Assembly: GCA_050246315.1 (NCBI GenBank)
Contig: JBFWWG010000004.1
Coordinates: 64,001 to 128,000 of the forward strand
Direction: 5' to 3'
From: Nitrospiraceae bacterium
Lineage (GTDB): Bacteria; Nitrospirota; Nitrospiria; Nitrospirales; Nitrospiraceae
Length of the DNA: 64,000 bases
The position numbers and the translations under genes are program-made. Shown in pieces: positions 16,658 through 41,314 of the stretch (positions are counted from its first letter, which is position 1; each line of letters opens with the position of its first letter). The notes under the pieces are model-generated. The model was not told the origin of the DNA and did no database searches. It worked only from the letters and a program-made list of their open reading frames with translations.

Positions 16658-18430
16658 CTAGAAGCTCTTGCCCTTCTTTCTATTCGCCCGCCGAGCCAGA
16701 ACCCACCCTTCCAGCACTACGACGCCGAGTCCGATCAACACCGGATAGATGTACGTTTCTTTCGGAATCGGCGGCTCGAGAATCGTATAATAGAAGGCCG
16801 ACACCGACATCTTCCTTCCGGCATCGCCGTTGTGCCCATCCCACGTGAAGAAGACAGTCGGAATATACTTACCAGCCTCAACATAGGCATATTCCTCGTA
16901 ATCATCCTTCCGCGGACGCTGCACCATCACTGTCCAGCGCCCATCCTTCCATTCCGACTTCAGAACCTTGAGCTTTTCCTCAAAATCATCCCGCTCTTCA
17001 AAATCCTGATCCCACCCGGTACCCTTGAAAGACCGGACAATGCCATCCGCTTCCCATTTCACGATATCCACCGGGTACTTGTTGTCACCCCAGAGATAGC
17101 GCGGCTTGGCGGGAGGCGGCAACTCTTGCCACTTGATGGGGAATTGGAAAGCAAACGCATCATTGAACGCCCGATAATTATTCTGGGCAGCGGCAATCGA
17201 ACCAGGCTCACCGGTCTTGGGAGCCTGCTCCTTCACCCCATAGGTATCGAGGTTCACCTCGGTCGGGTCCCACTCCGGTTTCTCCTGAGCCACGCTTTTC
17301 GTACGATCATCCCACTGGAACAAGAACACGATATTGTCGTTGTTGTACAGCGACTTGACCCAGACATCATCGATCCGGGTCACGAAATTCCGTGGCTTGT
17401 GAGTAATTTGACCACCAAGCGCCACAATCCGCCGCTCCCGGTTGGTCCACATTTCGCTTTCAGGATCATCCGAAATGTCTCCCTCCACCGGACCGGAGCG
17501 CACCACGAAATTGATCTTCGGCTTGTCCGTCAAGGGATCAATTTCAAGAGGATTGCCGTCCTTGTCTCGCTCACAGAGCGATTGGACAAAATTGGCGATA
17601 TCCCAGCGCTCCTCCAAGGTGGTGCTGTCTGCGAAGGAGGGCATTGGAGTCCCGTTGACCCCCGTCGAGAAGGTCCTAAAAATGTTCTTCACATTGTAAG
17701 GATCCTGGCGACTCCCGCGGAAATTCCAACACTTGTGCCAGTTGGCCGGTTGGATCGAAAATCCCCAGTCATCCTTCAGGTTGAAGGCGTTGCCATCGCC
17801 CCGACCGGTCACGCCATGGCACTCGATACACTTCTTATCGACCACCAACTGGGCGCCCTTCTCAATACTTTCCTTTGTTGAAGGGACCTGTTTGATCTCA
17901 CCCAATTGGAGAACGGTCTGCGTTTCAGTATCCTTATCCGTAAACTTCCGATCTTTGACCAATTGAGTCGTCACGAACGACAACACTTGCAGCCGTTGCT
18001 CCTCGGTCAAAATTCCTTCCCACGGAGGCATTGCGGATCCGGGCAATCCATGGGTCACAGTCTCGAACAGGTCGTTCTTGCCCGAGGCTTGCTCCTTGTA
18101 ATTGAACAGGGGTAACTCGCCGCTGGCCGTATGGCGAATCTTGAAGGTGCCCTGGTTGAAATTCCGCGGCCGAGGCCACAACCGATCCGCACCAGGGCCG
18201 TCCCCGGCACCGTCAACGCCATGGCACCAGACACATTTGGTAAAATAGACGCGCTTTCCAGCCTCAATCATCTCCGCTGGAGGCTCCGGAGCAAGCGCCT
18301 GGTTCTTGAACCCTTCAGGCGCAGCCTGCTCGGCATAGGCCGTTGTCACCGCGCTGCCGGAAAGCAGCACGAGTCCTGCCGTAGCGAGGCCGAGAAGGGC
18401 TTTGGAACGAGATCCATTCTGCATTGTCAT
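16658..18430 (-). CDS. Diheme cytochrome c fused to an ethylbenzene-dehydrogenase-gamma-like (EB_dh) domain; candidate NXR gamma-type subunit
   Basis: Signal peptide, CVWCH and CIECH, C-terminal EB_dh/DOMON-like region (FQWDDRT, NDAFAFQFP, WKDGRWTV, TWDGHNGD-x-GRKM), C-terminal TM anchor; start ATG 18430 with GAGGG RBS. Confidence 0.8.
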   Translation of the reverse strand: MTMQNGSRSKALLGLATAGLVLLSGSAVTTAYAEQAAPEGFKNQALAPEPPAEMIEAGKRVYFTKCVWCHGVDGAGDGPGADRLWPRPRNFNQGTFKIRHTASGELPLFNYKEQASGKNDLFETVTHGLPGSAMPPWEGILTEEQRLQVLSFVTTQLVKDRKFTDKDTETQTVLQLGEIKQVPSTKESIEKGAQLVVDKKCIECHGVTGRGDGNAFNLKDDWGFSIQPANWHKCWNFRGSRQDPYNVKNIFRTFSTGVNGTPMPSFADSTTLEERWDIANFVQSLCERDKDGNPLEIDPLTDKPKINFVVRSGPVEGDISDDPESEMWTNRERRIVALGGQITHKPRNFVTRIDDVWVKSLYNNDNIVFLFQWDDRTKSVAQEKPEWDPTEVNLDTYGVKEQAPKTGEPGSIAAAQNNYRAFNDAFAFQFPIKWQELPPPAKPRYLWGDNKYPVDIVKWEADGIVRSFKGTGWDQDFEERDDFEEKLKVLKSEWKDGRWTVMVQRPRKDDYEEYAYVEAGKYIPTVFFTWDGHNGDAGRKMSVSAFYYTILEPPIPKETYIYPVLIGLGVVVLEGWVLARRANRKKGKSF

Positions 18431-18462
18431 GGTTTGTCCCTCTTCGCCTTGCTCGTGAATAA

Positions 18463-19422
18463 TTAGTCCCACGTACGGGGGTAGTAACCCGTATGCCAGT
18501 ATTCAAACAGAATGACCTTCCAGATCTCATCCGTGGTCAAATGCTGCTCCCACGGCGGCATCACGGACGCCCACGGAAACCCCTCCGGTGGAAGACCAAT
18601 GCCACCCTTCGCCACGCGCCAGAATACGAAGGTTTCTTGAAGCTGTGCCAATGTCCCAGGATCGGTGAAATTGGCCGGAATGGGATTAAACGCGAAGGCA
18701 TGAAGGCCCCGCCCGTTCAAATTGTCACCGTGACAGAAATGACAATTCTGGAAGAAAATTTCACCGCCCTCGCGAACGTACTTGATGTAGCCTTGGGCAT
18801 TTGGATCCCACGGATTGGCCTCCGGCTTCTGCTGCATCAGCCGCCCCATGCTCTGCTCAGTGATGAGCTTTCTGGCAAACTCCTCATCAAACTTGCCATC
18901 GGTATTCACACGATACGGATTGTAGGCAGTTTGGAGTGTAAATGTCTTGCCATGAACCTTCGTATTCTGAGGCGGAGCCGGATGCACAGTCCGTAATTCA
19001 ATCGGCTCGTCCAGACTGGGGAGGAACGAATTATAGGCAAACCCACCGATAATAAGCGGCAAGGCCACCAGCCAGGCAGTGCGCAGAAGCTTGTGTAGAC
19101 CGGTGTTCGCATCCAACACGTTGAGAATCGGTTGCTTGAACTTTTTCCAATCCTCTTCGTTGCTGGACAGCCACATGAAAACCGCTACAAGTGCCGCGGT
19201 TCCATACATGGCCCTGACGCTGAACGGAATCGGCGGATAGATCCTGTACTTCAGGTACATCAGAAGGAAGACCCAAAACAGGATGCCCTGCCAAAACCGG
19301 GACATGGCGAGCCCGCTCTTGTTCAGCATGTAACTGAGAAGGGCAAACACGCCGACGCAGAAGGCGAGCTCAAAGATCATCTGCATCGGCATATACCCCT
19401 CGACCAACTTTAGCCAGGTCAT
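18463..19422 (-). CDS. Membrane-bound monoheme cytochrome c
   Basis: About 4 N-terminal TM helices, CHFCH, distal Met in SVMPPW. Confidence 0.9.
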   Translation of the reverse strand: MTWLKLVEGYMPMQMIFELAFCVGVFALLSYMLNKSGLAMSRFWQGILFWVFLLMYLKYRIYPPIPFSVRAMYGTAALVAVFMWLSSNEEDWKKFKQPILNVLDANTGLHKLLRTAWLVALPLIIGGFAYNSFLPSLDEPIELRTVHPAPPQNTKVHGKTFTLQTAYNPYRVNTDGKFDEEFARKLITEQSMGRLMQQKPEANPWDPNAQGYIKYVREGGEIFFQNCHFCHGDNLNGRGLHAFAFNPIPANFTDPGTLAQLQETFVFWRVAKGGIGLPPEGFPWASVMPPWEQHLTTDEIWKVILFEYWHTGYYPRTWD

Positions 19423-19455
19423 GATTCCACTCTCCTTCTTGGGCTCAAATGTTCC

Positions 19456-20766
19456 CTAGTTGATCTTCGGCGGCTCTTTTCCCGTCTGCACTTGCGAGAG
19501 GTAGTCGATGATCTTATTAATCGCTCCCGCGCTCAGCTTCTGGCCGAAAATCTTGGGCATCACGCCGTCTGCAAATGGCTTCACGACATAGGCGCTCGGG
19601 TTGATGACCGACTCCATGATGTATTCACGAGTCGTCTTTGCCCCTCCCTTGTAATCTGCGGACTTGATTCGAAGAGGAGCGTTGGTTCCCTCCTCAAGCT
19701 TCGGCCCTACGGCACCGGTCGCTCCTGGGATACCAGGAATTGTGTGGCACACGATGCACTGCCCCTTCGCAAAGATCTGGTCGACCGGCTCAGACCCATC
19801 GGCCAACAATCCACCCCCGCCCGCATCCTTCTTCTCTTCCTGCTGCGCGGGACGATCCGACTCCGGAATGAACTTTTCGTACGACTTCGCGATCTCATCG
19901 TACGAGGGTGCGTCCTTACCCTCCCGCACATACATCCAGGTATCGACGGCCGCCAACTCTCCGATCGAAAGTGAAATCGGCGGCTTATGAATCTTGGGCA
20001 TCGGGCTTTCCTTATCATTCGTACCCTTGACACCAAAGCCAGCCACTACAAAGCAGTTTGGACAAGCATGCGATTCAGCGATGTACTCTTGGCCTACTTC
20101 AGCAGTACCCGAGCCAGGGAAGGACTCCTTCTCGACCGTGTCTCTTTCAGCCGGCTTCCCCTTGTGATAACGCGGATCGTTCATGCGCTCGTCGAGCCGC
20201 CCCGGCAACCCCCACAAGTTCGGAGCACGCTCGCTGAGAAATCCTTGATTGAATCCATGACACAGAGGACACTGTCCTTTCCCGATCGCGCCTTGGACTT
20301 GGCTTTGTCCCACTCCGCCGAAAATGATCTTCTCTCCCTCATCTGCCAACTGCTGCGGACTCATCGAATTGAAATCCAACTTGACCTCGGGGGGAGGAAA
20401 CCCACCCTCGACTTGCGGGAGCCAATTGCCGTAGCCGGACAAGAACGCCGCCACAAAGAACATCATGCCGCCGATCTTGAACAACGCACTGAGATTGGCG
20501 AAATACAAACCCATCATCAGCGTCATGGCGGTAATCATCGCCAACGACACGGGGAGCAGTCGGCTTTCCGCGAAGAAATTGATCTTATAATTCGCGATTG
20601 CGAAAAAGAGCATCACGCTGGCAATCATGCCGATAAAGGTCTTAAACATTGCTCGCTTTTTCGCTTCAGGATCCGGGATAGCGACCTGGAAATACACCAG
20701 CAGGCCCACGAGCAATGCAAAGACTGGCCATCCCATGTCCAACGCAGCAGAAAATAAATTCCCCAC
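19456..20766 (-). CDS. Membrane-bound diheme cytochrome c
   Basis: About 4 N-terminal TM helices, CPLCH and CIVCH, SPMP and GVMP distal Met motifs, additional HACPNC; GTG start with AGGAGG RBS. Confidence 0.9.
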   Translation of the reverse strand: MGNLFSAALDMGWPVFALLVGLLVYFQVAIPDPEAKKRAMFKTFIGMIASVMLFFAIANYKINFFAESRLLPVSLAMITAMTLMMGLYFANLSALFKIGGMMFFVAAFLSGYGNWLPQVEGGFPPPEVKLDFNSMSPQQLADEGEKIIFGGVGQSQVQGAIGKGQCPLCHGFNQGFLSERAPNLWGLPGRLDERMNDPRYHKGKPAERDTVEKESFPGSGTAEVGQEYIAESHACPNCFVVAGFGVKGTNDKESPMPKIHKPPISLSIGELAAVDTWMYVREGKDAPSYDEIAKSYEKFIPESDRPAQQEEKKDAGGGGLLADGSEPVDQIFAKGQCIVCHTIPGIPGATGAVGPKLEEGTNAPLRIKSADYKGGAKTTREYIMESVINPSAYVVKPFADGVMPKIFGQKLSAGAINKIIDYLSQVQTGKEPPKIN

Positions 20767-20844: not shown

Positions 20845-22791
20845 TTAGTGGCCACCCACTGGCTGCGGGGCTCCTCCTGGAGCCGGGGCCTTTGCCTCAA
20901 CCGGCGCAGCCTTCTTTGTCAGTGACCCGACCCAAAAGACGAAAAGAATACTGATCCAGAAGAACAACACGTTGGCGGAGATCATGTTGGCACCAAACCC
21001 GACCGTATGCGTATAGGCCCACGGGGAGTTGTCACGCATGACCTCATTGACGTGCCAGAACAACCGGACGGACGAGCGGATATAACCCATCAGTCCCATC
21101 ATCCAGGTAAACGCTGTCGCCAACATGATCAGGGCATACTGAGAGCGCGCCGAGATCTTGCCCCACTCCACAGCCCCCATCTGCTTGGCCCCCTTAAGCA
21201 TGACGAGGTTGAGCGCCCCCATCATGAACAGACAGGACAGTGTCGTTGCGACCTGAGGAACTGATAGGCCGACTCGGACGTTGGCGGGAATGTAGTAACC
21301 GTACACGGCTAGCCAGACGATGTTGAAGTAGGCGAAGAAGAAAAACACCCCCATGAAGATGTTCCCGAACTTCGACCATGACACCGTGGAAACCTTGTTC
21401 CCCCGCTGGTACCAGATGAAACTCAGAACAGTAGTCGTAATAATGACGTTAATTCCCCCGTTCTTTGCGGACATGACCCCGTAGTTTCCCAATACGGGAT
21501 GCTGCTGACCGCCCATGGCCTTCAGCTCCGCGGGAGTCATCACCATGGTATGAGGGGTAATGAAAACGGTAAATCCCACGATCAGGAGAAACACCAAGTA
21601 TTTAATGTAGCGGAAGTACTTCTCGGCACCCCTCATCCGTCCCAGCGCCTGCCAGAGATAGTAATTGGTGCTCAAGAATAGGATCCCGATCATGGTTGCC
21701 TGGATGATGAACAACCAAGCCAGAAGACCTCCCATGAGTGTAATTCCCATCTGCTGCCGGTAGGCATACACTTCTCGCATCAGCCAATATCCAGCGAACG
21801 GCAACGGAATCAAGAACGCCACGCCGATCGCCATCGCGACATAGCCCATCCAGTCATAATGCGCACGGTCCTCGTCGGTCTTCGAAGAAAGGAATCGGTA
21901 AGCAGCATACGCCGCTACTACGCCTCCACCGAATGCCATATTGCCGAGGATACGGTGCAGATTGAGCGGGTTCCACAAAGCGGTGTGCAGGACGTGCCAG
22001 ATGTTCCCCAGGAACCGACCCTGCTCGTCAACTCCGGCCGGCGACATCATGAATCCGATCCACGAGTTGGCGAGGAACATAAGCACGGTCCCGATGACGT
22101 TCAAAATGACGGACATACTGAGGTGAATCCACTTGAGGAAACCCGTCTTCATCTTGTCCCAACCGTAGTAATAGATGTAGAGGGTTCCGCTCTCCGCCAC
22201 AAACATCAACGCATAGATATGCATGACGGGACGGAAAATGCTCGAAAGGTAACCAAAAAATGAAGGATAGAGTGTAAGAAATGTAAAGATCAGAATCCCA
22301 CCCAGGATGGCGGTCAGTGAGTAGGCGGTCAAACTGATCTTGATAAAGTCATAGGCCAATTGATCATACTTCTTGGCCATCGCCTTATCTTTCGATACCA
22401 CCCCCACGAACTCGATGATCATGCAGAAGATCGGCACCGCCAGCACGAAGCTGCCGTAGTAGAGATGTTGCTGATTCGCGAACCAGATCAACACCCGACT
22501 CTCAAAGTTGTACCGAGGGTAATCTTTCTCTCCATCAGTCGTCTTGGGCGCGGGAGGACCCGACACAATGCCCTCGACCTTGTAATAAACGTCACGACCC
22601 TTCTCAACCTTTGCCTCCTCCTTCTTATCGCCATCTTTCTTCGCCGCCACCTCGGGCGGAGGACCACCCGCCGCAGGTCCACCACCTCCGGCAAGAGCAG
22701 GAATCGAAGAGATGAGTGGCAGAAGAAGGAGGCCAACCATGGCGCCCAGCGCCATGATCGACAGAATTTTTTTTCGCACTACACTGCCCAT
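20845..22791 (-). CDS. Cytochrome bd subunit I-like (CydA-like, 'bd-like') oxidase subunit, paralog 1
   Basis: QQHLYYGSFVLAVP, ANSWIGFMMSPAG, NLHR, GYIRSSVRLFWHV; many TM helices; start ATG 22791 (AAGGAGG RBS). Confidence 0.85.
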   Translation of the reverse strand: MGSVVRKKILSIMALGAMVGLLLLPLISSIPALAGGGGPAAGGPPPEVAAKKDGDKKEEAKVEKGRDVYYKVEGIVSGPPAPKTTDGEKDYPRYNFESRVLIWFANQQHLYYGSFVLAVPIFCMIIEFVGVVSKDKAMAKKYDQLAYDFIKISLTAYSLTAILGGILIFTFLTLYPSFFGYLSSIFRPVMHIYALMFVAESGTLYIYYYGWDKMKTGFLKWIHLSMSVILNVIGTVLMFLANSWIGFMMSPAGVDEQGRFLGNIWHVLHTALWNPLNLHRILGNMAFGGGVVAAYAAYRFLSSKTDEDRAHYDWMGYVAMAIGVAFLIPLPFAGYWLMREVYAYRQQMGITLMGGLLAWLFIIQATMIGILFLSTNYYLWQALGRMRGAEKYFRYIKYLVFLLIVGFTVFITPHTMVMTPAELKAMGGQQHPVLGNYGVMSAKNGGINVIITTTVLSFIWYQRGNKVSTVSWSKFGNIFMGVFFFFAYFNIVWLAVYGYYIPANVRVGLSVPQVATTLSCLFMMGALNLVMLKGAKQMGAVEWGKISARSQYALIMLATAFTWMMGLMGYIRSSVRLFWHVNEVMRDNSPWAYTHTVGFGANMISANVLFFWISILFVFWVGSLTKKAAPVEAKAPAPGGAPQPVGGH

Positions 22792-22861: not shown

Positions 22862-23065
22862 TTAGTTGCGGAAGAGGTACCAGTAATCCAACCCCTGCAT
22901 GTCCATGAGATAGTGATCCACCAATGTGAAATAGGAGAGCGCAATGAGCACGGACACCACAACGGCGAAGACCGTATTGTTCAACAGTGCTTTGGACTTG
23001 GCTCCTACGAACAGAAGCACAAACCCCGCGATCAACGTCGCAAGCCAAAAGTATGGACTTGTCAT
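22862..23065 (-). CDS. Small two-TM membrane protein (67 aa)
   Basis: AGGAGG RBS, two hydrophobic helices, directly upstream of the CydA-like gene. Confidence 0.8.
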   Translation of the reverse strand: MTSPYFWLATLIAGFVLLFVGAKSKALLNNTVFAVVVSVLIALSYFTLVDHYLMDMQGLDYWYLFRN

Positions 23066-23156: not shown

Positions 23157-23279
23157 CTAACAGGGACATTGAATTCCGGCGAACCAATAAAAGAACCACA
23201 GACCTACGGCCATCGTGACATAGAAAATCATCTTCCCAAGCTTTATTTTCCACTCTGGATCTTGAGCAACTTCGGCCAT
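23157..23279 (-). CDS. Small single-TM protein (40 aa) ending in CPC
   Basis: Not in ORF track: MAEVAQDPEWKIKLGKMIFYVTMAVGLWFFYWFAGIQCPC*; GAGGAG RBS upstream; first ORF after the 23429-23457 promoter. Confidence 0.75.
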   Translation of the reverse strand: MAEVAQDPEWKIKLGKMIFYVTMAVGLWFFYWFAGIQCPC

Positions 23280-23398: not shown

Positions 23399-23506
23399 AT
23401 GGGTGAAAAAAGTTCAAAATTGTTTGACATTATAGTTTTGGCCGGCATGGTTGTCAATATCATTTTGGCCGTGTTTCTCATCCTCTACTACTTTGATATT
23501 CTGTGA
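23399..23506 (+). CDS. Small single-TM protein (35 aa), antisense to the FGE gene tail
   Basis: Not in ORF track: MGEKSSKLFDIIVLAGMVVNIILAVFLILYYFDIL*; AAGGGG RBS; TTGACA near 23337 upstream. Confidence 0.6.
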   Translation: MGEKSSKLFDIIVLAGMVVNIILAVFLILYYFDIL

Positions 23507-24412
23507 TTTTTCTACGCCTTTCCTTTCTTGATCGCCACCCCATTTTCCGTTGACGGCGCACCGAAATCCGATGGTCTCGTCCCTAAAGTCAGGGACCATT
23601 TTGTTCCGGCTCGTCAGCCTCAAGTCTCCCCCTGTCGTCGTATAACTACCCCCTCTGAGAACGCGGAACATGCCATACTCCGGGCTGGGAGGATTCTTCT
23701 CCTGCGAATCCTTGTAGGCGGTTTCCAGATACCAATCCGACACCCATTCCATCACATTGCCGGCTCCATCCATCACCCCATAGGGGCTACGATCTTCCTG
23801 AAATGATCCTGCCGGAGCCGTTACTTCAGCCCCATCCTGTATCCGAGCCCAATTGGCGCTTCCAGGTCGTTCGTCGTCCCCCCAGGGCCACAGCCGCCCG
23901 TCAGATCCACGCATGGCCTTTTCCCATTCCGCTTCGCTTGGGAGACGCTGACCTTTCCAGGCGCAATAGGCTTGTGCGTCGTCATAGGATACATAGACCA
24001 CCGGTTGGTTCGCGGAACGCATCCGCCCCATATTCTTGGCATAGCGGGAAGGCGGCCCAGCTTTTCGATGTCCGGCGGCTGCGACGAAAGCCTCGTATTG
24101 ATGGTTGGTGACTTCATATCGATCGATCGAGAAACCGTCCAGGAAGATTTCTCGCTGCGGCGCCTCATCAAAACCACCGTGATCATATCCACGAATGAAC
24201 GGGCCGGGAGGAATGTAGACCATGTCTTCCTTGATAGGTATCTCTCCCTGTCCCATGTCCTGAGAGGACCGTACTGAGGAAGAATGATCCGAGGGGCCTT
24301 CGACAGTTTCAAAAGGGGTCAAGGAAGTGCCGCGGAGAATCCCCATGATCGGAAGCCCGGCAAATACGAGAACCGCGATGAGTATCGCGACCTTGAATCT
24401 CGTTTCGAGCAT
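23414..24412 (-). CDS. Membrane-anchored FGE-sulfatase (SUMF1)-fold protein
   Basis: N-terminal TM, EVTN, RLPSEAEWEKA, GNVMEW, RGGSY, IGFRCA. Confidence 0.9.
   Translation of the reverse strand: MLETRFKVAILIAVLVFAGLPIMGILRGTSLTPFETVEGPSDHSSSVRSSQDMGQGEIPIKEDMVYIPPGPFIRGYDHGGFDEAPQREIFLDGFSIDRYEVTNHQYEAFVAAAGHRKAGPPSRYAKNMGRMRSANQPVVYVSYDDAQAYCAWKGQRLPSEAEWEKAMRGSDGRLWPWGDDERPGSANWARIQDGAEVTAPAGSFQEDRSPYGVMDGAGNVMEWVSDWYLETAYKDSQEKNPPSPEYGMFRVLRGGSYTTTGGDLRLTSRNKMVPDFRDETIGFRCAVNGKWGGDQERKGVEKSQNIKVVEDEKHGQNDIDNHAGQNYNVKQF
23429..23457 (-). promoter_or_regulatory. Perfect-consensus sigma70 promoter for the small-protein/CydA-like/cytochrome c/NxrC-like operon
   Basis: TTGACA (23457-23452), 17-nt spacer, TATAAT (23434-23429). 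Confidence 0.8.
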
Positions 24413-24442
24413 GATTCCACCCGAAGCGAAGTCGCCTCGGCC

Positions 24443-25784: not shown

Positions 25785-25829
25785 CGGGGACTCGCTTATT
25801 CACATTCGGTCGGCCACAGCCGAAGCCCC

Positions 25830-31787: not shown

Positions 31788-31969
31788 GTGTACTCCATCA
31801 GGACGAATTCGGGCATAATACCGAGTCCGTTTGAGCAAAGGCAAGGTCACCACGAGAGAACGGGCTTGAGTGCCCTCCTGTGAAAAGCAAGAGGGCAGCA
31901 ACTCATCCGAGCTGCTGCCCTCCGTCTGTTTCGCCCCTGTCGCGTACGCGGATCAGCGCACGCGCACGA

Positions 31970-32944: not shown

Positions 32945-32973
32945 TTTATACAGAATCCTCCATCGCGAGTCAA
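32945..32973 (-). promoter_or_regulatory. sigma70 promoter for the 32758 gene
   Basis: TTGACT, 17-nt spacer, TATAAA on the minus strand. Confidence 0.6.
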
Positions 32974-33032: not shown

Positions 33033-34406
33033 TCAGAAGCGTGCGTGGACCGCCTGTTGATCCTGGCGCAGTAGGCGAATCAACGATGCGGCTGCCGTCG
33101 CCTGTACGGCCGCATCCTGGTCACGCAAGGCTTCCTTAAGGTCCGGAATGTGCTCTCGGCTCCCGATGCGCCCCAGGGACCGGGCCGCAGCAATCCTTGG
33201 GCGGGGCAAGGGATCGTGCAGGATCTGATCCAGATAGGCCAGCGCGGCCTGTCGATTCAGCCCCGCACCGCGCCCCAGCGCCTTGGCAACCGCCGAGCGA
33301 GGGCCGGGGTCTTGGGCTCGCATCAAACTACGTACGGCTTCCTCGATCTCAGGGAAAGGCTCGCCCAATCTAAGCATGGAGTCCACGGCCGCACCTTTCA
33401 CTCCGGGATCGGGGTCGTGAAACGCTTTTCGAAGAACGGGGACGGCCTCTTTCCTGCTCAATTCCCCCAGCGCGACCGCCGCGCTGGATCGCACGGCGGG
33501 AATCTTGTCGTTCATCAGCGTAACGAGCGGCTCCAATCCTTCCGCCTTGCCGAACAAACCCAATGCCGCAGCCGCCCCTCCTCGCACAGACGGTTGTGGA
33601 TCACGGCTTCCCGCAATCGCGAACTCCAGGCCGCGTGGGTCCTTGAGTTCTCCCATCACACGCAAGGCGGTGCTCCTGGCCTCGGGGTTTGCCGCCTTGG
33701 CGGCCTGAGTCAGTCCGGTCCAGGATTCTTTGCGGCCGAAACGCAGCAAGGCTCCGATGGCCTGCACCCGTACCATCGGTTGCTCGTCGTTCAGCGCCTG
33801 CTCAAGGAGCGGTCGCTCGCGCTTGTCGCCGTTGAGCCCGACCGCTCGTACGACATTGGCCCGAACCATCGAGGCCTGATCCTCCATCGCCTTGCGCAAC
33901 CTCGGCGACTTCCGGCCGTTCTGCAATTGGCTCAAGGCCTCGGCCGCCAGCGCCCGGACAAGCCCCGACCCGTCGCTCAGACCATCTTCGAGATCTGGCA
34001 CGACGTCCTCGGACTCCAGCTCCTTCAACGCTGTATATGCGGCACCTCGCATCTGTTCGCGCATATCTTTGAACAACACCCGAATGAATCCCATCGCGAC
34101 GGTCTCCAGCAGCGCCTCCTCGTCGCGGCCTTGGTCCTTCGCCACTTGGTCGTAGACGTCCAACGCATCCTTGGGACGCCCGAGTTCGATGAGCGTTTTG
34201 GTCTTGAGCGTGCGGGCGTGGGTGGACAGCGAACGGTTGTCGCCCAGACGATCCAACAACTCCAGGGTCTGAGGATAACGCCGTTCCGAAAATGCGCCCT
34301 CCGCCTCCCGTTCGAGGGCACCGGCTGAAGGAGCCTCAGCACCCTCGACGTCCGGGCCGAAGAACAGCAGGCCCAGACACAGCAGCGCTCCCGTTCTCAT
34401 CATCAT
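33033..34406 (-). CDS. Exported HEAT-repeat protein
   Basis: Signal peptide, TPR-like N-terminus, about 10 LxD...VRxxAAxALG repeats. Confidence 0.9.
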   Translation of the reverse strand: MMMRTGALLCLGLLFFGPDVEGAEAPSAGALEREAEGAFSERRYPQTLELLDRLGDNRSLSTHARTLKTKTLIELGRPKDALDVYDQVAKDQGRDEEALLETVAMGFIRVLFKDMREQMRGAAYTALKELESEDVVPDLEDGLSDGSGLVRALAAEALSQLQNGRKSPRLRKAMEDQASMVRANVVRAVGLNGDKRERPLLEQALNDEQPMVRVQAIGALLRFGRKESWTGLTQAAKAANPEARSTALRVMGELKDPRGLEFAIAGSRDPQPSVRGGAAAALGLFGKAEGLEPLVTLMNDKIPAVRSSAAVALGELSRKEAVPVLRKAFHDPDPGVKGAAVDSMLRLGEPFPEIEEAVRSLMRAQDPGPRSAVAKALGRGAGLNRQAALAYLDQILHDPLPRPRIAAARSLGRIGSREHIPDLKEALRDQDAAVQATAAASLIRLLRQDQQAVHARF

Positions 34407-34434
34407 CGACGGAATGGAACGCGACACGACGAGT

Positions 34435-35376
34435 CTACTGTTGGTATTCAACAAGGGGTTCGATCGCGACAGGATGTCCGAGAGACTCCGGCCCAAATCG
34501 AGGGTTTTCCATCACCTTGAAAGCCGACCGATTTCCCCTCGGCGCTTCAAGGACAACGTCCTCGGTAACACGCCCGTTGGGAGCCACCGTCACCGTTTTG
34601 GAGATGCTGGGACCGGATTGAGGGTGCCAGATGACAAGTTGATAGGTTCCGGGCGGAATATGATCAAGACGATAGGTACCGTCGGCCGCGGTCACGGCGT
34701 AATAGGGGTTGGTCACCGCCACAGCCCAGCTCTCCATAAATGCATGGAAGCCGCACTGCATGTAAAAGGTGCGCCGGCCGTGGTTGAGATAGATCGGTCC
34801 GACCAACGATCTTCCTGGCTCATGATCGTGGGTCGCGTGCAGGTCACCCCGGTGATGGCGGACGTTCATGCGCAGGGGCGAATTGAACAGGACTCGCGTC
34901 CCGGCCTGCAAGGAGGTCTCATAGCCTTGGATATCGTGCATGACCGGGTCCATGTTCACGACTTCCACGGCGTGGCCGTTCCGCACGATCGTGACAAAGG
35001 GTGTGAATTTGCAATCGCGCGCTTCAACGAGCGGAACCGACAACTCGAACGGTTTGCCGCTTTCGATCCCTTCAAGAAACACGACGGTGTCCTTGAGACC
35101 CCCTCCCTGATCGACGACAAAATCGTAATGCAACCGCCAGCCCTTCCCGTTGGAAATGCGTCCGCAGTATTGAGGATCGGGAAACGTGATCAGGTTAAAC
35201 CCCTTCGGCTCCGGCACCGCGCCTTGCAAGGTTACACGCCCCTCAATCGTGCCACCGTCCTTCACCTCGATCACCTCATACGCCGACGCCTGCGCCGGAA
35301 GTCCCAGGGCCAGGACGATCGCGCAGCAGACGAGCCTGCCTACCAAGAACCTGGTACCGACCATACGACCGCTCAT
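34435..35376 (-). CDS. Exported cupredoxin-like/carboxypeptidase-regulatory-like protein
   Basis: Signal peptide, NMDPVMHDIQ, QCGFHAFME, IPPGTYQLVIWHP. Confidence 0.8.
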   Translation of the reverse strand: MSGRMVGTRFLVGRLVCCAIVLALGLPAQASAYEVIEVKDGGTIEGRVTLQGAVPEPKGFNLITFPDPQYCGRISNGKGWRLHYDFVVDQGGGLKDTVVFLEGIESGKPFELSVPLVEARDCKFTPFVTIVRNGHAVEVVNMDPVMHDIQGYETSLQAGTRVLFNSPLRMNVRHHRGDLHATHDHEPGRSLVGPIYLNHGRRTFYMQCGFHAFMESWAVAVTNPYYAVTAADGTYRLDHIPPGTYQLVIWHPQSGPSISKTVTVAPNGRVTEDVVLEAPRGNRSAFKVMENPRFGPESLGHPVAIEPLVEYQQ

Positions 35377-35397
35377 GCCATAACCTCCGAAGAATGT

Positions 35398-36315
35398 TTA
35401 GGGTCTCTGTAATTCCAAGGTCGGGCGGATGTCGATCGAGCGTCCGAGGGCCTCCAGCCCGAAGTGAGGATTCTCGACGATTTCATGCGCGCTCCGACGT
35501 CCCGTCGGCGCCTTAAACTCAAAGGAAGCCGTCGCGGTTTCTCCGGCTTTCACCGTGATGTTCTGCTGCAACATCGGCCCGGTCTGAGGATGCCAGGCGG
35601 CCACTGCATAGTCGCCGGGCGGTACCTCTGCCAGAGAAAAACTCCCGTCCGGCCCCGTGATCGCATAATACGGATGCTCGATCGCCAGCCCCCAACTCTC
35701 CATGTAGGCATGGAACCCGCACTGCATGACGAAGATGCGGCGCTCCTTGGTCATGCGGACCTTCTGGACCACCGGTTCGCCGGCGATATGCTTATGGTAT
35801 TCGGCCCCGACTCCGGATCTTGGATGGTGCGGATTCATCGGCAGGGGTACATTGAACAGCACACGCGGTCCCAGATTGGAGGTTTCATAAGCCTGAATGT
35901 CATGCATCACCGGGTCCATATTCACGACCTTCACGTCATGATCGTCACGCACCACAGTGACGAAGGGGAGAAACCGACAATCGCGCGCCTCGATCGTCGG
36001 CGGGGTAAAGGCGAACGGCTTGCCTTGTTTCACCTCGGTCAACATCACCACGACATCCTTCAGCCCGCCGCCCTGAGACACCGTAAACTCTTCGAGGATG
36101 CGCCATCCGGTGCCCGTTGAGATGCGTCCGCAATAGACGGGATCCGGAAACGTAATGAGGTTGAACCCTTTGGGAATCGGCTTCCCACCGGTGATAGTCA
36201 CCTTCCCAGCAATCGTCCCTCCATCCACGACCGCCATCTCATCGTAGGCACCCGCCTGGGGCGCAAACCACACAACCCACAGCGCCATCACTGCGAATCG
36301 AATCAATCGAACCAT
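35398..36315 (-). CDS. Exported cupredoxin-like/carboxypeptidase-regulatory-like protein (tandem paralog)
   Basis: Start 36315 (GGAGG); NMDPVMHDIQ, QCGFHAYME; highly similar to the 34435..35376 product. Confidence 0.8.
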   Translation of the reverse strand: MVRLIRFAVMALWVVWFAPQAGAYDEMAVVDGGTIAGKVTITGGKPIPKGFNLITFPDPVYCGRISTGTGWRILEEFTVSQGGGLKDVVVMLTEVKQGKPFAFTPPTIEARDCRFLPFVTVVRDDHDVKVVNMDPVMHDIQAYETSNLGPRVLFNVPLPMNPHHPRSGVGAEYHKHIAGEPVVQKVRMTKERRIFVMQCGFHAYMESWGLAIEHPYYAITGPDGSFSLAEVPPGDYAVAAWHPQTGPMLQQNITVKAGETATASFEFKAPTGRRSAHEIVENPHFGLEALGRSIDIRPTLELQRP

Positions 36316-36379: not shown

Positions 36380-36413
36380 AAAAAGAAGGGGGAGCCAGAC
36401 TCTGGCTCCCCCT
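36380..36413 (-). terminator. Rho-independent terminator after the multicopper oxidase
   Basis: GGGGGAGCCAGA/TCTGGCTCCCCC stem followed by TTCTTTTT. Confidence 0.85.
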
Positions 36414-36442
36414 CCCACACGTTCCTCTCGGTCGATGAAACG

Positions 36443-39400
36443 TTACCGGGAGGCCACCGGACTCACCTGAGCCTCAGCCGGTGAATCGGCCTGCGCCTTC
36501 TTCACTCCGACCGCAGCCCCGGACAACGGTAGCAACCGTTGATCGCCGGACGGTAGGACGCGCACATAGCCCCACTGACCGGACTGCGAATACGGCAGCC
36601 GCTGGTTGCTGTAGGTAAAGTCGCCCACCAACCGATAGGGACCGCCTGCCGACGGGATGAACGCATCGATGACCTCGGAACCGGAATACTCGACGACGCT
36701 GATCATGTCGGCGCCGCGCATGTACGGTTCGATCGGCCACTCGTGCTTCTCTATGCTGAACATCCCGTTCTGCTCGTTGGTCGCACCCAGAATGTGAAGC
36801 CGAACCGGATCTCCCGCATGCGCCTCGATAATAGGCGTCACGGGATCTTCCGGCTTATCGGCCACGCAGGGCTGGAATACGCGGCCCAGCGTGCACCCCA
36901 GCTCTTCCCGGAACTTGTACGGCTCGGACCGGTAGTTCACCCCGGTCAGACCCGCCACGTTCTGGACGTAGGGCATGAAGCTCGTCCCGATGATGTTGTC
37001 TTCGTCCTGGAAGAACAACGAGGCATCCCGGTAGTTCGTCCGGAACTCGTTGCCGGATATCGTCCGGTCTACGATGACATCCACCATCCAGGCATTCTTG
37101 TTGGACACATCGGCTCCGGTCTTCGGATCGCGGTACTTGGAGCCCTTCGGGCCGACCACGACCGCGCCGAAGAGACCATTCCGAGGATTGAGCATCGGAT
37201 TGCCGCCATCCCACACCAGCGACGTGATCTCGCCGTTCGCAGGATCCGCATAGTAGGTGTACGTGCGGCTTTCGCCCGGGGCGACCGTCTGGTCGTTCGG
37301 GTTGTTACCGACGTTCCAGCCAAGCGAGTCCTTCGGATCGAAGGCCAGCGACATGGCCGAGAAGGAAGCACGGCTGCTCTTCATCTTGTTTTTCAAGTTG
37401 ACCTTAATACAATCCCCCACGTTCACGTGCAACGTCAGCGGCATCGGCTGCGCATTCGCCACCGTGGCGATCTCGTCCTCCAGGACATAGATCTTCGCGT
37501 CGGGGTTGGTGATCTGGATCTTCCGCTCGAAGTCCACCTCGATGGCCTCGGGCGCCTTTGCGTTGAACTTCATGTTCGGATAGTCGATCGCCACGACATT
37601 GAACGACTTCACCGGAGCATCGGCCGGACAGACCGGTATTGGTGCCGGAATTTCGTTCCGTCCCGAATAACCGGCAGGGAGCCTCTGCAAATCCGGCTGT
37701 TCCTTGTCGTACACGCGGAGAATCCCCCACCCACCCTCGGACAGCTTGGAAGCCCGTCCGTTGAAGTGGATAAAGTCGCCGGCTTGCAGCCGAGGCCCGC
37801 CGGCTTTCGGCACTACCAGGTCATACCGTTCGGCAATCCCGATATGAATGGAGTTCTTCCGGTTCGCGTCGCCGGCATACCGTTCGGTCAAGAACGTATG
37901 GCCGGACAACGTCCACACCATCGACTCGTTCATCAGCGTATGCAACAGACGAAATACCATCGTATCGCCCACATACGCGCGCAGCAGCGGCGTGTAGGGA
38001 TCACCATGGATCGCGCTGTTGAACACCTGGTGGACATCCGGATTAGAAGCCAATCGCTGGGCGATAGGTCCTGCCCGGAAGTTCAAACCGCTCCCTGTAG
38101 TATGGGTCCCACCGTTAAGGAACGGCATCGGCGTCATGTAGATTTTTTCCGGCATCTGGAACGAGACTGTTTTCCCTGCTTCCAGCGCCACCTCGACCGG
38201 CTGGCCGGGCGGGTTACCGGCGGTCACAATATTCACCGTGTGGGGCACGGTGTCATGAACCTGCACCATCAATTCACGGAAACTGCCGTTTACGTTATGT
38301 CCGACCGGCTCAATCGTCCGAATGTCGGCGATCGGTCCGCTCCGGACCTGCTTCCCGGTCTTGGGATCGTGGTACGTAGACCCGACCGGCTCGGCAATGA
38401 AGGTTCCGAATCCGCCGTGCGGCCAAGTGGTCGCGCCGAAGGCATGGTCGTGCCAGAACACGGTACCCACGTCCGCATCGACCCAGAACCGCTGCCGCAC
38501 GAACTCAACCGTCACGATGTCCTTGGCCGGGTGATCGTGCTTCAGACCCTTGGTCAAGGTAATCGTGTTGCCCTTGATCTCCTTGATGCGGGCGATTTCG
38601 TTGCCCTTGACGTTGTCCGCCCCGACGAGGATCAGGATCTTCGGATGGTATTGGGCCGCGTTCTTCACGGTAATGGTGGTGGCCCCCTTCTTCACAGGCG
38701 CCGTCAACACCGTGTTCATCGGGACAGGCAGTCCCTTCTTGTCCTTCTTCTCCAGCATCGTGAACGGACGCACCGATTGTTCATAGGAGAACCCAGTGAT
38801 CACCCCGTCCGACGCCTGGTTGTCGAACTGGAGGAAGTGCCAGTGCGTATTGATTTTGGATGCCTGGAAGTTCGTGTAGTCGTCGTCCTCCCATTCACTG
38901 GTCAACGTCCAATCCAGGCAGTCGTAGATGTTGCCGCGGACGACCAACGGATACTTGAGGTCATCGTTGGCGCGAATCGCTGCTTCTTCTTCATGCAACA
39001 CATAGATCAAGCCCGTCTGGTCTACGACGGCCGGCTCTTTGCCCTGCGCCTTCGCCAACTTGATCGGGAGCTTGATGAAGTGCACATTGTAATCTTTGCG
39101 TCCGGCGTTTTCGGGACACAAACTCCACACGCCGTTTTCACCGGGCTTGGCTTGATCCAGGCTCTCCTCACCGTTGTCGTCCCGGCGAATCGGCTCAAGC
39201 CACGGGGCACCGACGTGATTCGGGGAGAACATCACACGCTTCCCGAAATGCGGCGTCAGGTGCGGCCAAGCCACACGCCCGGTCGTCGGCTCGAACGTGA
39301 TCGGATGACGCTTGCCCGGATGTGTCGACTTGTACTTGGGACTGTCAAACGTGCTTTCCTTCTCTGACATCGCCTTGTTGCCGTCCCAGATCCAATCCAA

Positions 39401-41314
39401 CACCGTGGCATCGTAGGACACAATCTGGCCCTTTTCATCGTCCTTGTGACCGGGCTTTCCTTGTGTCGGCAACTGCATTTCCACCCAGTCTTTGATCGTG
39501 ATCACGGCCGGACTGCCCTTCCAATTGCTCTTACCCTTATCCACAATCTGGAAAGTCTTTCCGAACCAGTCCACCGTCGTCCCGACCAATTTGTCGGAGG
39601 TCACGGGGTGCTTGATGCGTCCCTTGCGATCAGGCAATTCGCGCAGGTCCGGCATCGTGTCATTGCGATGGTCTCCATGCTGCAGCGTGTTGTACACCCG
39701 CCAGTATCCCCACATGCCCGCCACATAGTGGTGCGCGACGTGGCAGTGGAAGAGGAAGTCGCCGGCAAGTTGCTGGCACAGACCCGACCCGCACTCCGTT
39801 TCGAGGTCCAGCGCTTCCGACGGTCCGATGACTTCAACGTCTACGCGATCGGTCTTATGACGAATGACCGGATATTTCACAGGACCGTTTACGGAGACCG
39901 CCCAGAGGTTCATATCGTCGATGGCCCGCGGGCTGCGCGGCCAACGAATCGTCCCGCCGTGCGGATGGTGGGAGTGGAACACCTCCGACCCACCGTGCAC
40001 CAGCCGGAACTTCGCCGGATCGCCCAAATAGGACCGCGGAATGGTCGGGGACGGATCGCCGAACGTATAGGAGCTATAGCCCATCGACTCGTCTTCAAAC
40101 CCGAAGTATTCGTGCTGCACATGCATGTTGTTGATGCCGAAGGGCTCGCTGCGATAGTTGATCGCACGGGCGCCTGGCCGATACACGTCCGTCAACGGAT
40201 CGCGTTGCGGCAGGAAGTCGCCCTTCTTGTTGACCGGGCGGAACGCCTCGTCGCCCACTTCGTGATAAATCAACACGTATTCCCGGAAGTCCGGACCCGA
40301 GCCGTTGTCGATCATCACCTGCCAACCGCTACTGGCCGCCTCGTCCTTGGAGGTCGGATCTCCGAGCGCCTGCAGATAGGACGAGCCGCGCGGCTCGACG
40401 ACGAAGGCCCCAAAGAGCCCGAGCACCGTCAGCTCGCGATCATTGCTGAAGCTGTGGAATTGTTTCACACCCTCCTGGGCGGCCGGATGGATATACCATT
40501 CCATCTCCACCGCCTTGTCCGGCTTGGCAACCGAGTCCGGGTTGGTCGTGGTCGCCGCCTGTCCCGTGGCGCTGATGACTGGATAGGAGCCGTGGATGTG
40601 CAGGCTGACCTCGTCCACACCCTCCAGCTTGTTCTCCAGCTTGACCTTGACACAGTCGCCTTGGTTGGCGCGGAGCACGAGCGGCTCGATCCACTGAGCC
40701 TGCACACCGGGGAGCACCGCTCCCGGATCATAGCCTTCCTTCTCGCGCGCCTCCTTGTTCTTCGTCTCCTCGGCCCGCACCTTGTCGAGATTCTCCGTCA
40801 AGACGTACATGTAGCCGGGATAGTAATCGAGCCATTGATTGAGGGTGATCTCGATGTTGATCGCCTGCACGTTGAACTGCTTGACGGGCGCATACGCTGG
40901 ACACTTGCCCCCGCCCTCCATGACCGGCTCACGGCGCGGATCCGACATCAACAGGAGATCCTGCCCGCCGGCACCATACTGGTGCATCATGGACATCGTA
41001 TTGAAATTCCCCGTGCTGACCTGCTGCACCTGCGGATCCTTGGCCATCTGCTCCATGATCCGTTGATGTTGCTGCTCAACCTTCGCCGAACGATCCGGAC
41101 GACCCGACATCGCGTCTTCCACGACGGTCTGGCCTTTGAGCTGCTCCGCCCACTCCGGCGTGGCATGCCCCATGGAGGTCATATGGACCGAAGCATGGCC
41201 CTCATGGGACGTGTCTTCAGCCGCGCCGACCAGCGGGAGCGCCAGAAAGGCGCCTGCCGCCAGCAGGCTGACCCAACCACGAAGCGGTTGAATCTGATGG
41301 TGATGATTAAGCAT
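36443..41314 (-). CDS. Large multi-domain multicopper oxidase (MnxG-like)
   Basis: Signal peptide; copper motifs LHIHG, FHSHHPHG, HCHVAHHYVAGM, THWH, WHDH; repeated NYRSEP modules; 1623 aa. Confidence 0.9.
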   Translation of the reverse strand: MLNHHHQIQPLRGWVSLLAAGAFLALPLVGAAEDTSHEGHASVHMTSMGHATPEWAEQLKGQTVVEDAMSGRPDRSAKVEQQHQRIMEQMAKDPQVQQVSTGNFNTMSMMHQYGAGGQDLLLMSDPRREPVMEGGGKCPAYAPVKQFNVQAINIEITLNQWLDYYPGYMYVLTENLDKVRAEETKNKEAREKEGYDPGAVLPGVQAQWIEPLVLRANQGDCVKVKLENKLEGVDEVSLHIHGSYPVISATGQAATTTNPDSVAKPDKAVEMEWYIHPAAQEGVKQFHSFSNDRELTVLGLFGAFVVEPRGSSYLQALGDPTSKDEAASSGWQVMIDNGSGPDFREYVLIYHEVGDEAFRPVNKKGDFLPQRDPLTDVYRPGARAINYRSEPFGINNMHVQHEYFGFEDESMGYSSYTFGDPSPTIPRSYLGDPAKFRLVHGGSEVFHSHHPHGGTIRWPRSPRAIDDMNLWAVSVNGPVKYPVIRHKTDRVDVEVIGPSEALDLETECGSGLCQQLAGDFLFHCHVAHHYVAGMWGYWRVYNTLQHGDHRNDTMPDLRELPDRKGRIKHPVTSDKLVGTTVDWFGKTFQIVDKGKSNWKGSPAVITIKDWVEMQLPTQGKPGHKDDEKGQIVSYDATVLDWIWDGNKAMSEKESTFDSPKYKSTHPGKRHPITFEPTTGRVAWPHLTPHFGKRVMFSPNHVGAPWLEPIRRDDNGEESLDQAKPGENGVWSLCPENAGRKDYNVHFIKLPIKLAKAQGKEPAVVDQTGLIYVLHEEEAAIRANDDLKYPLVVRGNIYDCLDWTLTSEWEDDDYTNFQASKINTHWHFLQFDNQASDGVITGFSYEQSVRPFTMLEKKDKKGLPVPMNTVLTAPVKKGATTITVKNAAQYHPKILILVGADNVKGNEIARIKEIKGNTITLTKGLKHDHPAKDIVTVEFVRQRFWVDADVGTVFWHDHAFGATTWPHGGFGTFIAEPVGSTYHDPKTGKQVRSGPIADIRTIEPVGHNVNGSFRELMVQVHDTVPHTVNIVTAGNPPGQPVEVALEAGKTVSFQMPEKIYMTPMPFLNGGTHTTGSGLNFRAGPIAQRLASNPDVHQVFNSAIHGDPYTPLLRAYVGDTMVFRLLHTLMNESMVWTLSGHTFLTERYAGDANRKNSIHIGIAERYDLVVPKAGGPRLQAGDFIHFNGRASKLSEGGWGILRVYDKEQPDLQRLPAGYSGRNEIPAPIPVCPADAPVKSFNVVAIDYPNMKFNAKAPEAIEVDFERKIQITNPDAKIYVLEDEIATVANAQPMPLTLHVNVGDCIKVNLKNKMKSSRASFSAMSLAFDPKDSLGWNVGNNPNDQTVAPGESRTYTYYADPANGEITSLVWDGGNPMLNPRNGLFGAVVVGPKGSKYRDPKTGADVSNKNAWMVDVIVDRTISGNEFRTNYRDASLFFQDEDNIIGTSFMPYVQNVAGLTGVNYRSEPYKFREELGCTLGRVFQPCVADKPEDPVTPIIEAHAGDPVRLHILGATNEQNGMFSIEKHEWPIEPYMRGADMISVVEYSGSEVIDAFIPSAGGPYRLVGDFTYSNQRLPYSQSGQWGYVRVLPSGDQRLLPLSGAAVGVKKAQADSPAEAQVSPVASR

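Follow-up and report, generated by a model that had tools for sequence, protein, structure and literature searches.

A six-gene operon for a CydB-less bd-like protein and three membrane cytochromes c in a Nitrospiraceae genome: a candidate cytochrome-c-fed oxygen reductase

The window analysed here, a stretch of 64,000 nucleotides from a Nitrospiraceae genome (G000, contig C4, JBFWWG010000004.1, 64001-128000; all feature positions are counted within the window), carries a respiratory gene cluster built around a core of six genes. These encode two small membrane peptides, a CydA-like protein of the OR-N family (bd-like_3) and three membrane-anchored c-type cytochromes, and our preferred interpretation, held with about even confidence, is that the core is a cytochrome-c-fed, haem-only O2 reductase. 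The core is a respiratory module of general, high-potential type; the copper proteins beside it come from genes that are transcribed on their own and are not predicted parts of it. The cluster has already been published as the Nitrospira bd-like_3/bd-like_4 genes with alt_NxrC_2 (TO_1, OR-N family), and the main hypotheses on its function are also in print. This copy adds no new system, and the biochemical question, important as it is, is not opened beyond the published genomes; the target is narrowed to the six-gene core instead of 25 kb, with a single OR-N subunit expected and not a bd-like_3/bd-like_4 pair.

The core operon within a block of several transcription units

In an earlier note on this DNA the co-oriented genes between 16658 and 41314 had been taken as one 25-kb system encoded with its own assembly factors. 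Every gene named there is on the minus strand, and the inventory holds: there are two CydA-like genes, five CxxCH sites, an EB_dh domain, small transmembrane (TM) peptides, a DUF420 protein, three cupredoxins (Cu1-Cu3) and a multicopper oxidase (MCO), and no cydB within the window. It had left out a pair of FGE genes, a DUF3047 protein, a zinc-finger/PCP_red protein, an O-methyltransferase and a HEAT-repeat protein. Co-orientation is not equal to one operon, however, and the 25 kb are predicted to comprise several transcription units, since strong terminator-like structures follow MCO, Cu3 and alt_NxrC_2 and a perfect promoter lies inside the block. These sites are consensus matches, not mapped transcript ends. 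Hairpins with a U-rich tail (-29 to -32 kcal/mol) stand at the end of the core operon after alt_NxrC_2 (16602..16636, minus strand like all features of the block, -31.8 kcal/mol), 3' of Cu3 (31890..31923, -29.3 kcal/mol, with similar hairpins in 12/12 orthologous loci) and 3' of MCO (36384..36416, -29.7 kcal/mol), and no other of the 20 gene ends in the block comes down to -29 kcal/mol, the remaining 17 being at -12.6 kcal/mol or weaker. The sigma-70 consensus promoter TTGACA-17-TATAAT (23429..23457, 12/12 matches) is contained in the 3'-terminal part of the FGE gene upstream and is identical in 14/14 genomes, 156-190 bases ahead of pepA. It is likely that the six genes from 23279 down to 16658 share this one conserved promoter and constitute the core operon. 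Cu3 is likely to be monocistronic, with a promoter-like site (TTGACT-17-TATAAA, 32945-32973) of its own, and another promoter-like consensus match belongs to MCO (41527-41555).

Published transcript levels from N. moscoviensis, whose genes were paired with those of the window by order and size, not by sequence, agree with separate units. The values given by Mundinger 2019 (PMC6606698), in reads per kilobase per million, are 4743 for alt_NxrC_2, 4348 for the Cu3-sized NITMOv2_3655 and 1922 for MCO, and among the OR-N genes bd-like_3 is highest with 2645, as against 1167, 816 and, for bd-like_4, 262 (PMC6606698). RNA contigs on the upstream block (4 runs, 4 studies) covered Cu3 and MCO above their neighbours in 3 runs and evenly in 1, but were left unused since contig depth cannot rank genes.

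The first gene of the core operon is pepA (23157..23279), for a one-TM peptide of 40 aa, followed by pepB (22862..23065), for a two-TM peptide of 67 aa, both present in 13/13 Nitrospirales. The CydA-like OR-N subunit bd-like_3 (20845..22791, PF01654) has 648 aa with an N-terminal signal or anchor helix and 13 TM helices. Downstream of it lie cytc2 (19456..20766), a dihaem cytochrome c with 4 TM helices, cytc1 (18463..19422), a membrane-anchored monohaem cytochrome c, and alt_NxrC_2 (16658..18430; PF00034, PF09459), in which a dihaem cytochrome c is followed by an EB_dh/DOMON-like domain and a C-terminal TM helix. The CxxCH sites are divided as two in alt_NxrC_2, one in cytc1 and two in cytc2. 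The reading frame of alt_NxrC_2 is open from 18472, and the chosen start, ATG at 18430, is preceded by a ribosome-binding site; compared with the longest open reading frames (ORFs), starts were reassigned for bd-like_3 (22791), bd-like_4 (28392), DUF420 (30795), Cu3 (32758) and Cu1 (36315).

The OR-N subunit and its cytochrome partners

The AlphaFold 2 model of bd-like_3 (pLDDT 85, pTM 0.85) consists of an N-terminal helix and 13 long helices. Its residues 92-629 superpose on whole CydA chains with Z 31-35, the best match being 7ose_A (Z 35.4, rmsd 3.6, 351 residues), while ActF/ActC (Z 20-22) and PsrC (Z 14.7) are matched more weakly. No solved OR-N structure was found by sequence search or among the Foldseek top 1000 chains, and NCBIfam gave no match for bd-like_3 or bd-like_4. 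Residue equivalences were placed by using the canonical CydA of this genome and the E. coli chain as guides, in an E. coli numbering (Glu99, Glu445, Lys252/Glu257 and others) which we take in part to be the usual one and which was placed by alignment to the E. coli chain.

The proposal of a CydB-less bd-like enzyme fed by cytochrome c is supported by the loss of the quinol loop, by cytochromes that are fixed operon partners in several phyla and by OR-N/cytochrome fusions. The quinol stretch QPVKGAAMEG of canonical CydA aligns with QQMGITLMGG here, the Lys252/Glu257 motif is missing, and the Q-loop is replaced by TM helices in the bd-like_3 model; the subunit itself has no CxxCH. A cydB gene is present in the genome, and the CydA-like proteins could in principle pair with its product and oxidise quinol as ordinary bd oxidases. 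We find this very improbable indeed: the only PF02322 match in the genome belongs, as second gene, to a canonical cydAB pair on contig C5, the quinol motif Lys252/Glu257 is missing, and CydB is absent from all 80 distant OR-N loci described below.

In bd-like_3, His109, Glu200, His223, His279, Met440 and Arg576 are the equivalents of His19, Glu107, His126, His186, Met393 and Arg448 of E. coli CydA. We surveyed 121 OR-N sequences (81 from distant loci, 10 from other Nitrospirota, 26 Nitrospirales orthologues and 4 from this genome), after dropping those aligning over fewer than 430 residues. His109 is present in 119/121, the position of Glu99 is occupied by Tyr (Tyr193) in 121/121, and the position of Glu445 is never acidic (121/121) but holds Ser, Gly or Ala. 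Met353, Arg572 and His580 are invariant and His431 is found in 120/121, a pattern that makes a third haem with replacement ligands plausible. A conserved site of three His and one Glu for a non-haem metal was not found across the 121 sequences. His414, His431 and His580 are all present in 28/28 Nitrospirales bd-like_3/4 sequences examined, but a family-wide three-His copper site appears unlikely since His414 occurs in only 40/81 distant sequences, the other 41/81 having Arg or Asn.

The dihaem part of alt_NxrC_2 matches the anammox dihaem cytochrome PDB 6h5l_B (E 3e-40), and its EB_dh domain scores 45 bits against a cut-off of 33.3. In NxrC and EbdC the axial ligands of haem b are, as we assume, a Met and a Lys. 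In the alignment the two soluble NxrC proteins of this genome (nxrC1, nxrC2) carry this pair, whereas alt_NxrC_2 has Trp and Met at these positions; also by alignment, the first Met is kept in 33/45 distant alt_NxrC homologues. Anammox nitrite oxidoreductase (NXR) as purified contained the soluble C subunit kustd1704 (Chicano 2021).

OR-N is fused to a cytc2 homologue in the protein P0001 (E 6e-14) and in the Nitrospinae protein P0024 (E 5e-8), and a cytc1 homologue is fused to an alt_NxrC homologue in 8/80 distant loci, which suggests that the core proteins may form one complex. Fusion to cytc2 is not a property of the distant OR-N genes (0/81 ORFs; P0001 and P0024 are the only cases), and the extra domain of P0002 does not match cytc2 (E 0.08).

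The genome holds four CydA-like genes that match only the N-terminal 240 positions of PF01654, two in the window and two on contig C15. The second OR-N cluster (C15:39114-49995) encodes bd-like_1, a Rieske protein, cytochrome b, a 334-aa protein and bd-like_2, followed by a cytc1 paralogue, alt_NxrC_1 and a dihaem cytochrome, a module composition equal to that of the window core. The second paralogue in the window, bd-like_4 (26527..28392, 621 aa, PF01654), is 50% identical to bd-like_3; the two form sister clades that are restricted to Nitrospirales within the sampled tree, and bd-like_4 would be a lineage-specific, weakly expressed duplicate. Judged by identity to bd-like_2 (41% and 39%) versus bd-like_1 (33% and 29%), bd-like_3 and bd-like_4 would both belong to OR-N2. 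A CydAA' arrangement of OR-N1/N2 has been proposed, as a hypothesis, by Kop 2024 and 2025; a search of the text supplements of Kop 2025 for the names OR-N1 and OR-N2 gave nothing. A heterodimer of this kind between bd-like_3 and bd-like_4 is disfavoured by the tenfold transcription gap in N. moscoviensis, the separate units and the single-copy operons elsewhere.

In the mechanism we favour, the six core gene products would form one membrane complex in which bd-like_3 reduces O2 using haem only, and the three membrane-anchored cytochromes would feed it in place of quinol and CydB. Electrons from a periplasmic donor, here soluble NXR via NxrC or a cytochrome c, would enter at the dihaem/EB_dh subunit and pass through cytc1 and cytc2 to the His279/Met440 haem and on to the O2-binding His109 haem, while protons would be taken from the cytoplasm via Glu200 and His223. 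The invariant Tyr193 may give an electron or a proton at the position of Glu99, and His431, His580 and Met353 may bind a further haem replacing the Glu445 haem. Cu3 would be a soluble carrier of the same high-potential pool, separately transcribed.

Distribution of the core and readings of its function

Farther afield we compared the best 80 of 615 confirmed loci from an alignment of distant homologues, a sample that leans to the core-like arrangement since it was ranked against a protein with a cytc2-like domain. These distant loci are mainly from Gemmatimonadota, Rokubacteria/Methylomirabilota and Acidobacteriota, and 79/80 have a single OR-N gene. Homologues of cytc1 are present in 70/80, of alt_NxrC in 67/80 and of cytc2 in 62/80, and a cupredoxin in 46/80. 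A further group of genes encodes PCP_red proteins (56/80, including fusions with USP and radical SAM domains), USP proteins (51/80), AhbD/NirJ2-like radical SAM proteins (49/80) and Mrp (39/80). In the present genome one run on contig C27 (4456-10927) holds mpqE for a methyl-plastoquinone methyltransferase, a B12 radical SAM gene, a USP/PCP_red gene and an AhbD/NirJ2-like radical SAM gene, and its USP and radical SAM proteins are orthologues of those of the distant cassette (E 1e-207 and 1e-124) that score below the AhbD and NirJ2 cut-offs. Among the 59 distant loci with at least 8.5 kb downstream, a cupredoxin is found in 45, coxA in 42 and both in 39. The cupredoxin family is thus a true companion of the core, tracking the aa3 oxidase where this is present. 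The occurrence of the core in Gemmatimonadota, Rokubacteria and Acidobacteriota, usually before cupredoxin and aa3 oxidase genes, means that it is not specific to NXR. The special coupling to NXR that had been assumed is unsupported, because NarG/NxrA-like genes are absent near the distant modules and alt_NxrC_2 does not carry the Met/Lys pair of soluble NxrC; the module also occurs in lineages not known as nitrite oxidisers.

None of the 80 distant loci contains CydB, MCO, HEAT, FGE, DUF3047, a Nitrospira-type DUF420, the methyltransferase, pepA, pepB, TorD or NarG (a DUF420 of another type is found in the cox cluster of 6 loci). The 25-kb block is therefore unsupported as a single system, given its several units and the absence of MCO, HEAT, FGE, DUF420, the methyltransferase and the small peptides from these loci.

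Near synteny was examined in 70 Nitrospirota genomes. All four OR-N paralogues are present in 13/13 Nitrospirales, where the genes from alt_NxrC_2 through the methyltransferase are collinear (13/13), as is Cu3 in the 12/12 with a contig reaching that far. HEAT and Cu2 come next in 7 genomes, with MCO seen in 5 of these and contigs too short in the other 2. Five genomes lack the HEAT-Cu2-MCO block next to the core and carry their MCOs on different contigs; these are the amoA-positive (comammox) genomes, all of one genus, and the loss of adjacency was probably one event. A comammox genome, G046, has an extra bd-like_3 copy (83%, C29:27045-28802) and a further two-piece OR-N gene (C5:52480-54176). 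Gene order within Nitrospirales is weak evidence, since secD, tgt, argS and mobA, housekeeping genes nearby, keep their order just as well as the core does (13/13). OR-N and the three cytochromes co-occur across phyla, but MCO is absent from 80/80 distant loci and stands apart in the five comammox genomes.

These data also bear on a fuller version of the 25-kb proposal, in which the whole block is one NXR-dedicated, copper-dependent O2 reductase with copper in the CydA-like subunit and with MCO and the cupredoxins as partners or assembly factors. The three His residues of all 28 Nitrospirales sequences, the collinearity as far as the methyltransferase and the position of soluble nxrC and torD about 16 kb downstream fit this idea, and MCO is in the Nitrospina cluster too (Lücker 2013, PMC3578206). 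We nevertheless consider it unlikely, in view of the Arg or Asn in place of His414 in 41/81 distant sequences, the internal promoter and terminators, the displaced MCO of the comammox genomes, the free-standing MCO paralogue of this genome, the absence of MCO from the distant loci and the low weight of gene order in Nitrospirales. As to copper in general, the expectation of copper partners is borne out in so far as the cupredoxin family travels with the module (45/59 loci), but copper inside the oxidase is unsupported because of the variable His414 and because the published copper site concerns bd-like_2. In Mundinger 2019 (PMC6606698) the copper-site and terminal-oxidase proposal is made for bd-like_2, matching the C15 locus.

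Other Nitrospirota show further contexts of the core. In G065 (L143:5499-18769) a complete nosZ-nosR-nosD-ABC cluster runs straight into two cupredoxins and the OR-N core, and in G037 (L145:12830-L146:3982) a MauG-like dihaem protein comes after the core, together with arsenite-oxidase-like small and large subunits above the cut-offs, a molybdoenzyme that could be of the Aio or the iodate-reductase type. The core comes after cox genes in G006, and in G031 and G063 it is accompanied by cupredoxins, the stretch read containing no cox gene.

Reduction of O2 by the core is favoured by the CydA fold and the retained haem ligands, by the lack of COX1 in this genome (100% complete), by the single OR-N gene of 79/80 distant loci, by bd-like_3 being the top OR-N transcript of N. 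moscoviensis, by the high expression of TO_1 in Manganitrophus, by the cytochrome fusions and by the frequent presence of cytc1, cytc2 and alt_NxrC and the absence of CydB (0/80) in distant loci. According to Kop 2025, three Nitrospirales in culture possess no oxygen reductase of another kind, which means that some OR-N must reduce O2 in them. Several points weigh on the other side. Glu99 and Glu445, used in the O2 chemistry of canonical bd oxidases, are by alignment lost in 121/121 OR-N sequences, and the aa3 oxidase gene in the same locus (42/59 distant loci) would make a second O2 reductase redundant. Other OR-N copies stand beside nosZ and beside an arsenite-oxidase-like molybdoenzyme, and bd-like_2 of C15, which has the same residue set and is the published terminal-oxidase candidate, could be sufficient alone for O2. 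The cluster is, moreover, conserved in strictly anaerobic anammox bacteria, according to the published comparisons (PMC6606698, PMC3578206).

The copies in anammox bacteria, the loss of both glutamates and the aa3 oxidases nearby make a second reading a serious rival. The core would then reduce no O2 and would be an electron hub between the quinone pool and periplasmic cytochrome c or cupredoxin, like alternative complex III (ACIII). In Nitrospira it would run backwards, starting from nitrite; in other hosts it would run forward and serve aa3, NosZ or further enzymes of the periplasm. Both Lücker 2013 and Mundinger 2019 named such a role as one possibility (PMC3578206, PMC6606698). It is in line with the position of the core before cupredoxin-coxBAC genes (39/59 loci), after actA-actB(-actE) genes (13/80) and after the nos cluster of G065, and with the ActF/ActC and PsrC matches of the model. 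Likeness to ActC would, however, be common to all CydA proteins, and here it is weaker than the CydA match; OR-N has no recognisable quinol residues, and the very high expression suits a main flux more than reverse flow. The host genomes also contain NrfD/ActC genes (17/18) and cytochrome b (12/18), and an actC-actF cluster is on the same contig in 4/4 Acidobacteriota, so that the module is not needed as complex III in those hosts. All in all we regard this role as possible, though on balance doubtful.

The Acidobacteriota regions (G071, G072, G074 and G075; L124-L138) are islands with canonical ACIII-caa3 genes and a split second ACIII, in which actABE accompany OR-N, while actC-actF accompany a cupredoxin and an aa3-type oxidase; two of the regions have haem-synthesis-like genes nearby. 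Replacement of ActC/D/F by OR-N in the order actA-actB-actE-OR-N was considered and rejected, actC-actF-(cupredoxin)-cox and canonical ACIII being on the same contig in 4/4 regions, and the NrfD and cytochrome b counts likewise do not support the module as a stand-in for a missing complex III.

Another candidate substrate is NO or a different N-oxide instead of O2. The G065 copy after a complete nos cluster, the presence in anammox bacteria and the altered active-site residues would suit this, and no known NO reductase was reported for Nitrospina despite nirK in the account of Lücker 2013 (PMC3578206). The lack of a conserved three-His and Glu non-haem metal site, together with the fact that most distant copies are beside an aa3 oxidase and not beside denitrification genes, makes it improbable in our view.

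It is tempting to speculate further, with rather low confidence, that OR-N2 is a widespread machine of its own, with a single CydA-fold subunit made self-sufficient by four extra helices, an invariant Tyr for Glu99 and a third haem that is His/Met-ligated or tailored by the co-inherited cassette of AhbD-like radical SAM, USP, PCP_red and Mrp proteins. Perhaps it does not reduce O2 but is a bd-fold complex III that connects the quinone pool with NXR, with NosZ, with arsenite-oxidase-like enzymes and with an aa3 oxidase fed by cupredoxin. If true, OR-N2 would provide the step of reverse electron transport that is missing in nitrite oxidisers and anammox bacteria. Nitrospira are the dominant nitrite oxidisers, and the cluster is one of two main candidates for the route of nitrite electrons to O2 or back to quinone. 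Tyr193, His431, His580 and Met353 are the residues singled out here, and the four-gene versions in other phyla are simpler and may be more tractable.

Neighbouring genes and comparison with known systems

Upstream of the core lie genes for two membrane-anchored FGE-sulfatase-like proteins (23414..25366, PF03781), of which there are about 19 paralogues genome-wide, two in the cluster and one behind the second MCO. These are followed by a membrane protein of 119 aa and a DUF3047 protein (25425..26504, family search), by bd-like_4 and by a 369-aa polytopic membrane protein with no family match (28389..29498). The zinc-finger and PCP_red protein (29511..30014, PF08369) is next to the DUF420 membrane protein (30079-30795) and the O-methyltransferase (from 30792; together 30079..31787, collinear in 13/13 Nitrospirales).

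Cu3 (31970..32758) is an exported protein with a type-1 cupredoxin domain within a transthyretin-like beta-sandwich, as judged by motif and model. Its model residues 143-247 match 4hcf (Z 10.7, rmsd 1.8, 84 aligned) and plastocyanin (Z 10.0), and the ligands are His188, Cys234, His237 and Met240. The HEAT-repeat protein (33033..34496, family search) is followed by the paralogous cupredoxin-domain proteins Cu2 (34435-35376) and Cu1 (35398-36315; together 34435..36315). The ligand set His...Cys-x2-His-x2-Met of Cu1-Cu3 is invariant at its four residues in 23/23 aligned homologues, and CxxHxxM is found in 47/47 cupredoxin matches from distant loci. The giant MnxG-type MCO (36443..41314, 1623 aa) has all four copper motifs (HSHHPH 447, HCHVAHHYVAGM 523, HWH 824, HDH 955) and multi-domain homology to MnxG 9bxa (E 3e-78), but remains below the curated cut-off of the MnxG equivalog NF041487 (136 versus 3100 bits). 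A paralogue (68%) on contig C1 has its own cupredoxin and FGE gene, and the MCO block is a separable Nitrospira/Nitrospina neighbour, not a core subunit.

In gene content the genome corresponds to a canonical nitrite-oxidising Nitrospira. There was no match to amoA in this genome, while the identical search was positive in 5/13 relatives. The last ~140 bases of contig C28 and the first ~140 bases of C24 each contain the start of a Nitrospira-type nxrA, and since these genes run off the contigs, nxrAB are unassembled, probably as two near-identical collapsed copies. Soluble nxrC and torD are found immediately to the left of the window. This nitrite oxidiser also has a gene for a cytoplasmic nitrate reductase of the NarG type, followed by partner genes (C2:177401-183314), and the window encodes a 234-aa protein with six CxxCH (52840-53544, minus strand) beside apparent molybdenum-cofactor and Tat genes.

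No purification or biochemistry of an OR-N/bd-like complex was found in the literature, and we found no paper on OR-N operon contexts outside nitrifiers, the supplements of Murali 2021, which may hold contexts and a residue table, being outside the search. The closest known relative is the N. moscoviensis cluster NITMOv2_3640-3660 (PMC6606698), with the same genes, order, strand, sizes and spacing when matched by order and size, not by sequence. It also has a 798-nt gene for an exported protein (NITMOv2_3655) and MCO (NITMOv2_3660), as here, and there is no substantial difference, except that nxrAB are unassembled in our genome. Mundinger 2019 (PMC6606698) described alt_NxrC_2 with two cytochromes c and bd-like_3, with bd-like_4 as a nearby duplicate in all Nitrospira, and suggested an NXR anchor or reverse electron flow as roles of this set.

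The set shown for Nitrospina, Kuenenia and Nitrospira in Fig. 6 of Lücker 2013 (PMC3578206) likewise contains an alternative NxrC, mono- and dihaem cytochromes c, a zinc-finger protein, two cupredoxins, a 14-TM bd-like oxidase without quinol residues and MCO, all of which have counterparts here, and a role as alternative complex III was raised there. That account ties the set to nitrite oxidation, whereas we find the core also in lineages not known as nitrite oxidisers. The module named TO_1 in Ca. Manganitrophus by Yu 2021 (10.1101/2021.11.15.468770) is similar, combining a single bd-like protein of clade I with two cytochromes c and a periplasmic subunit of the cytochrome b type; it is expressed at the 98th percentile in an organism whose family is reported there to be without nitrification genes. 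Beyond TO_1, Nitrospirales have the duplicate bd-like_4, the two small TM peptides and extra TM helices on cytc2.

At the level of the subunit, bd-like_3 agrees with the OR-N (N1/N2) family of the cytochrome bd superfamily as defined by Murali 2021 (10.1101/2021.01.16.426971), with a CydA core that keeps His19, no quinol site, 14 helices and no CxxCH. It shares with canonical CydAB (E. coli bd-I/II, Geobacillus bd) the whole-subunit fold and the equivalents of His19, His186, Met393, Glu107, His126 and Arg448, and differs from it in having no CydB, no Q-loop, four extra TM helices, Tyr for Glu99 and Ser, Gly or Ala for Glu445.

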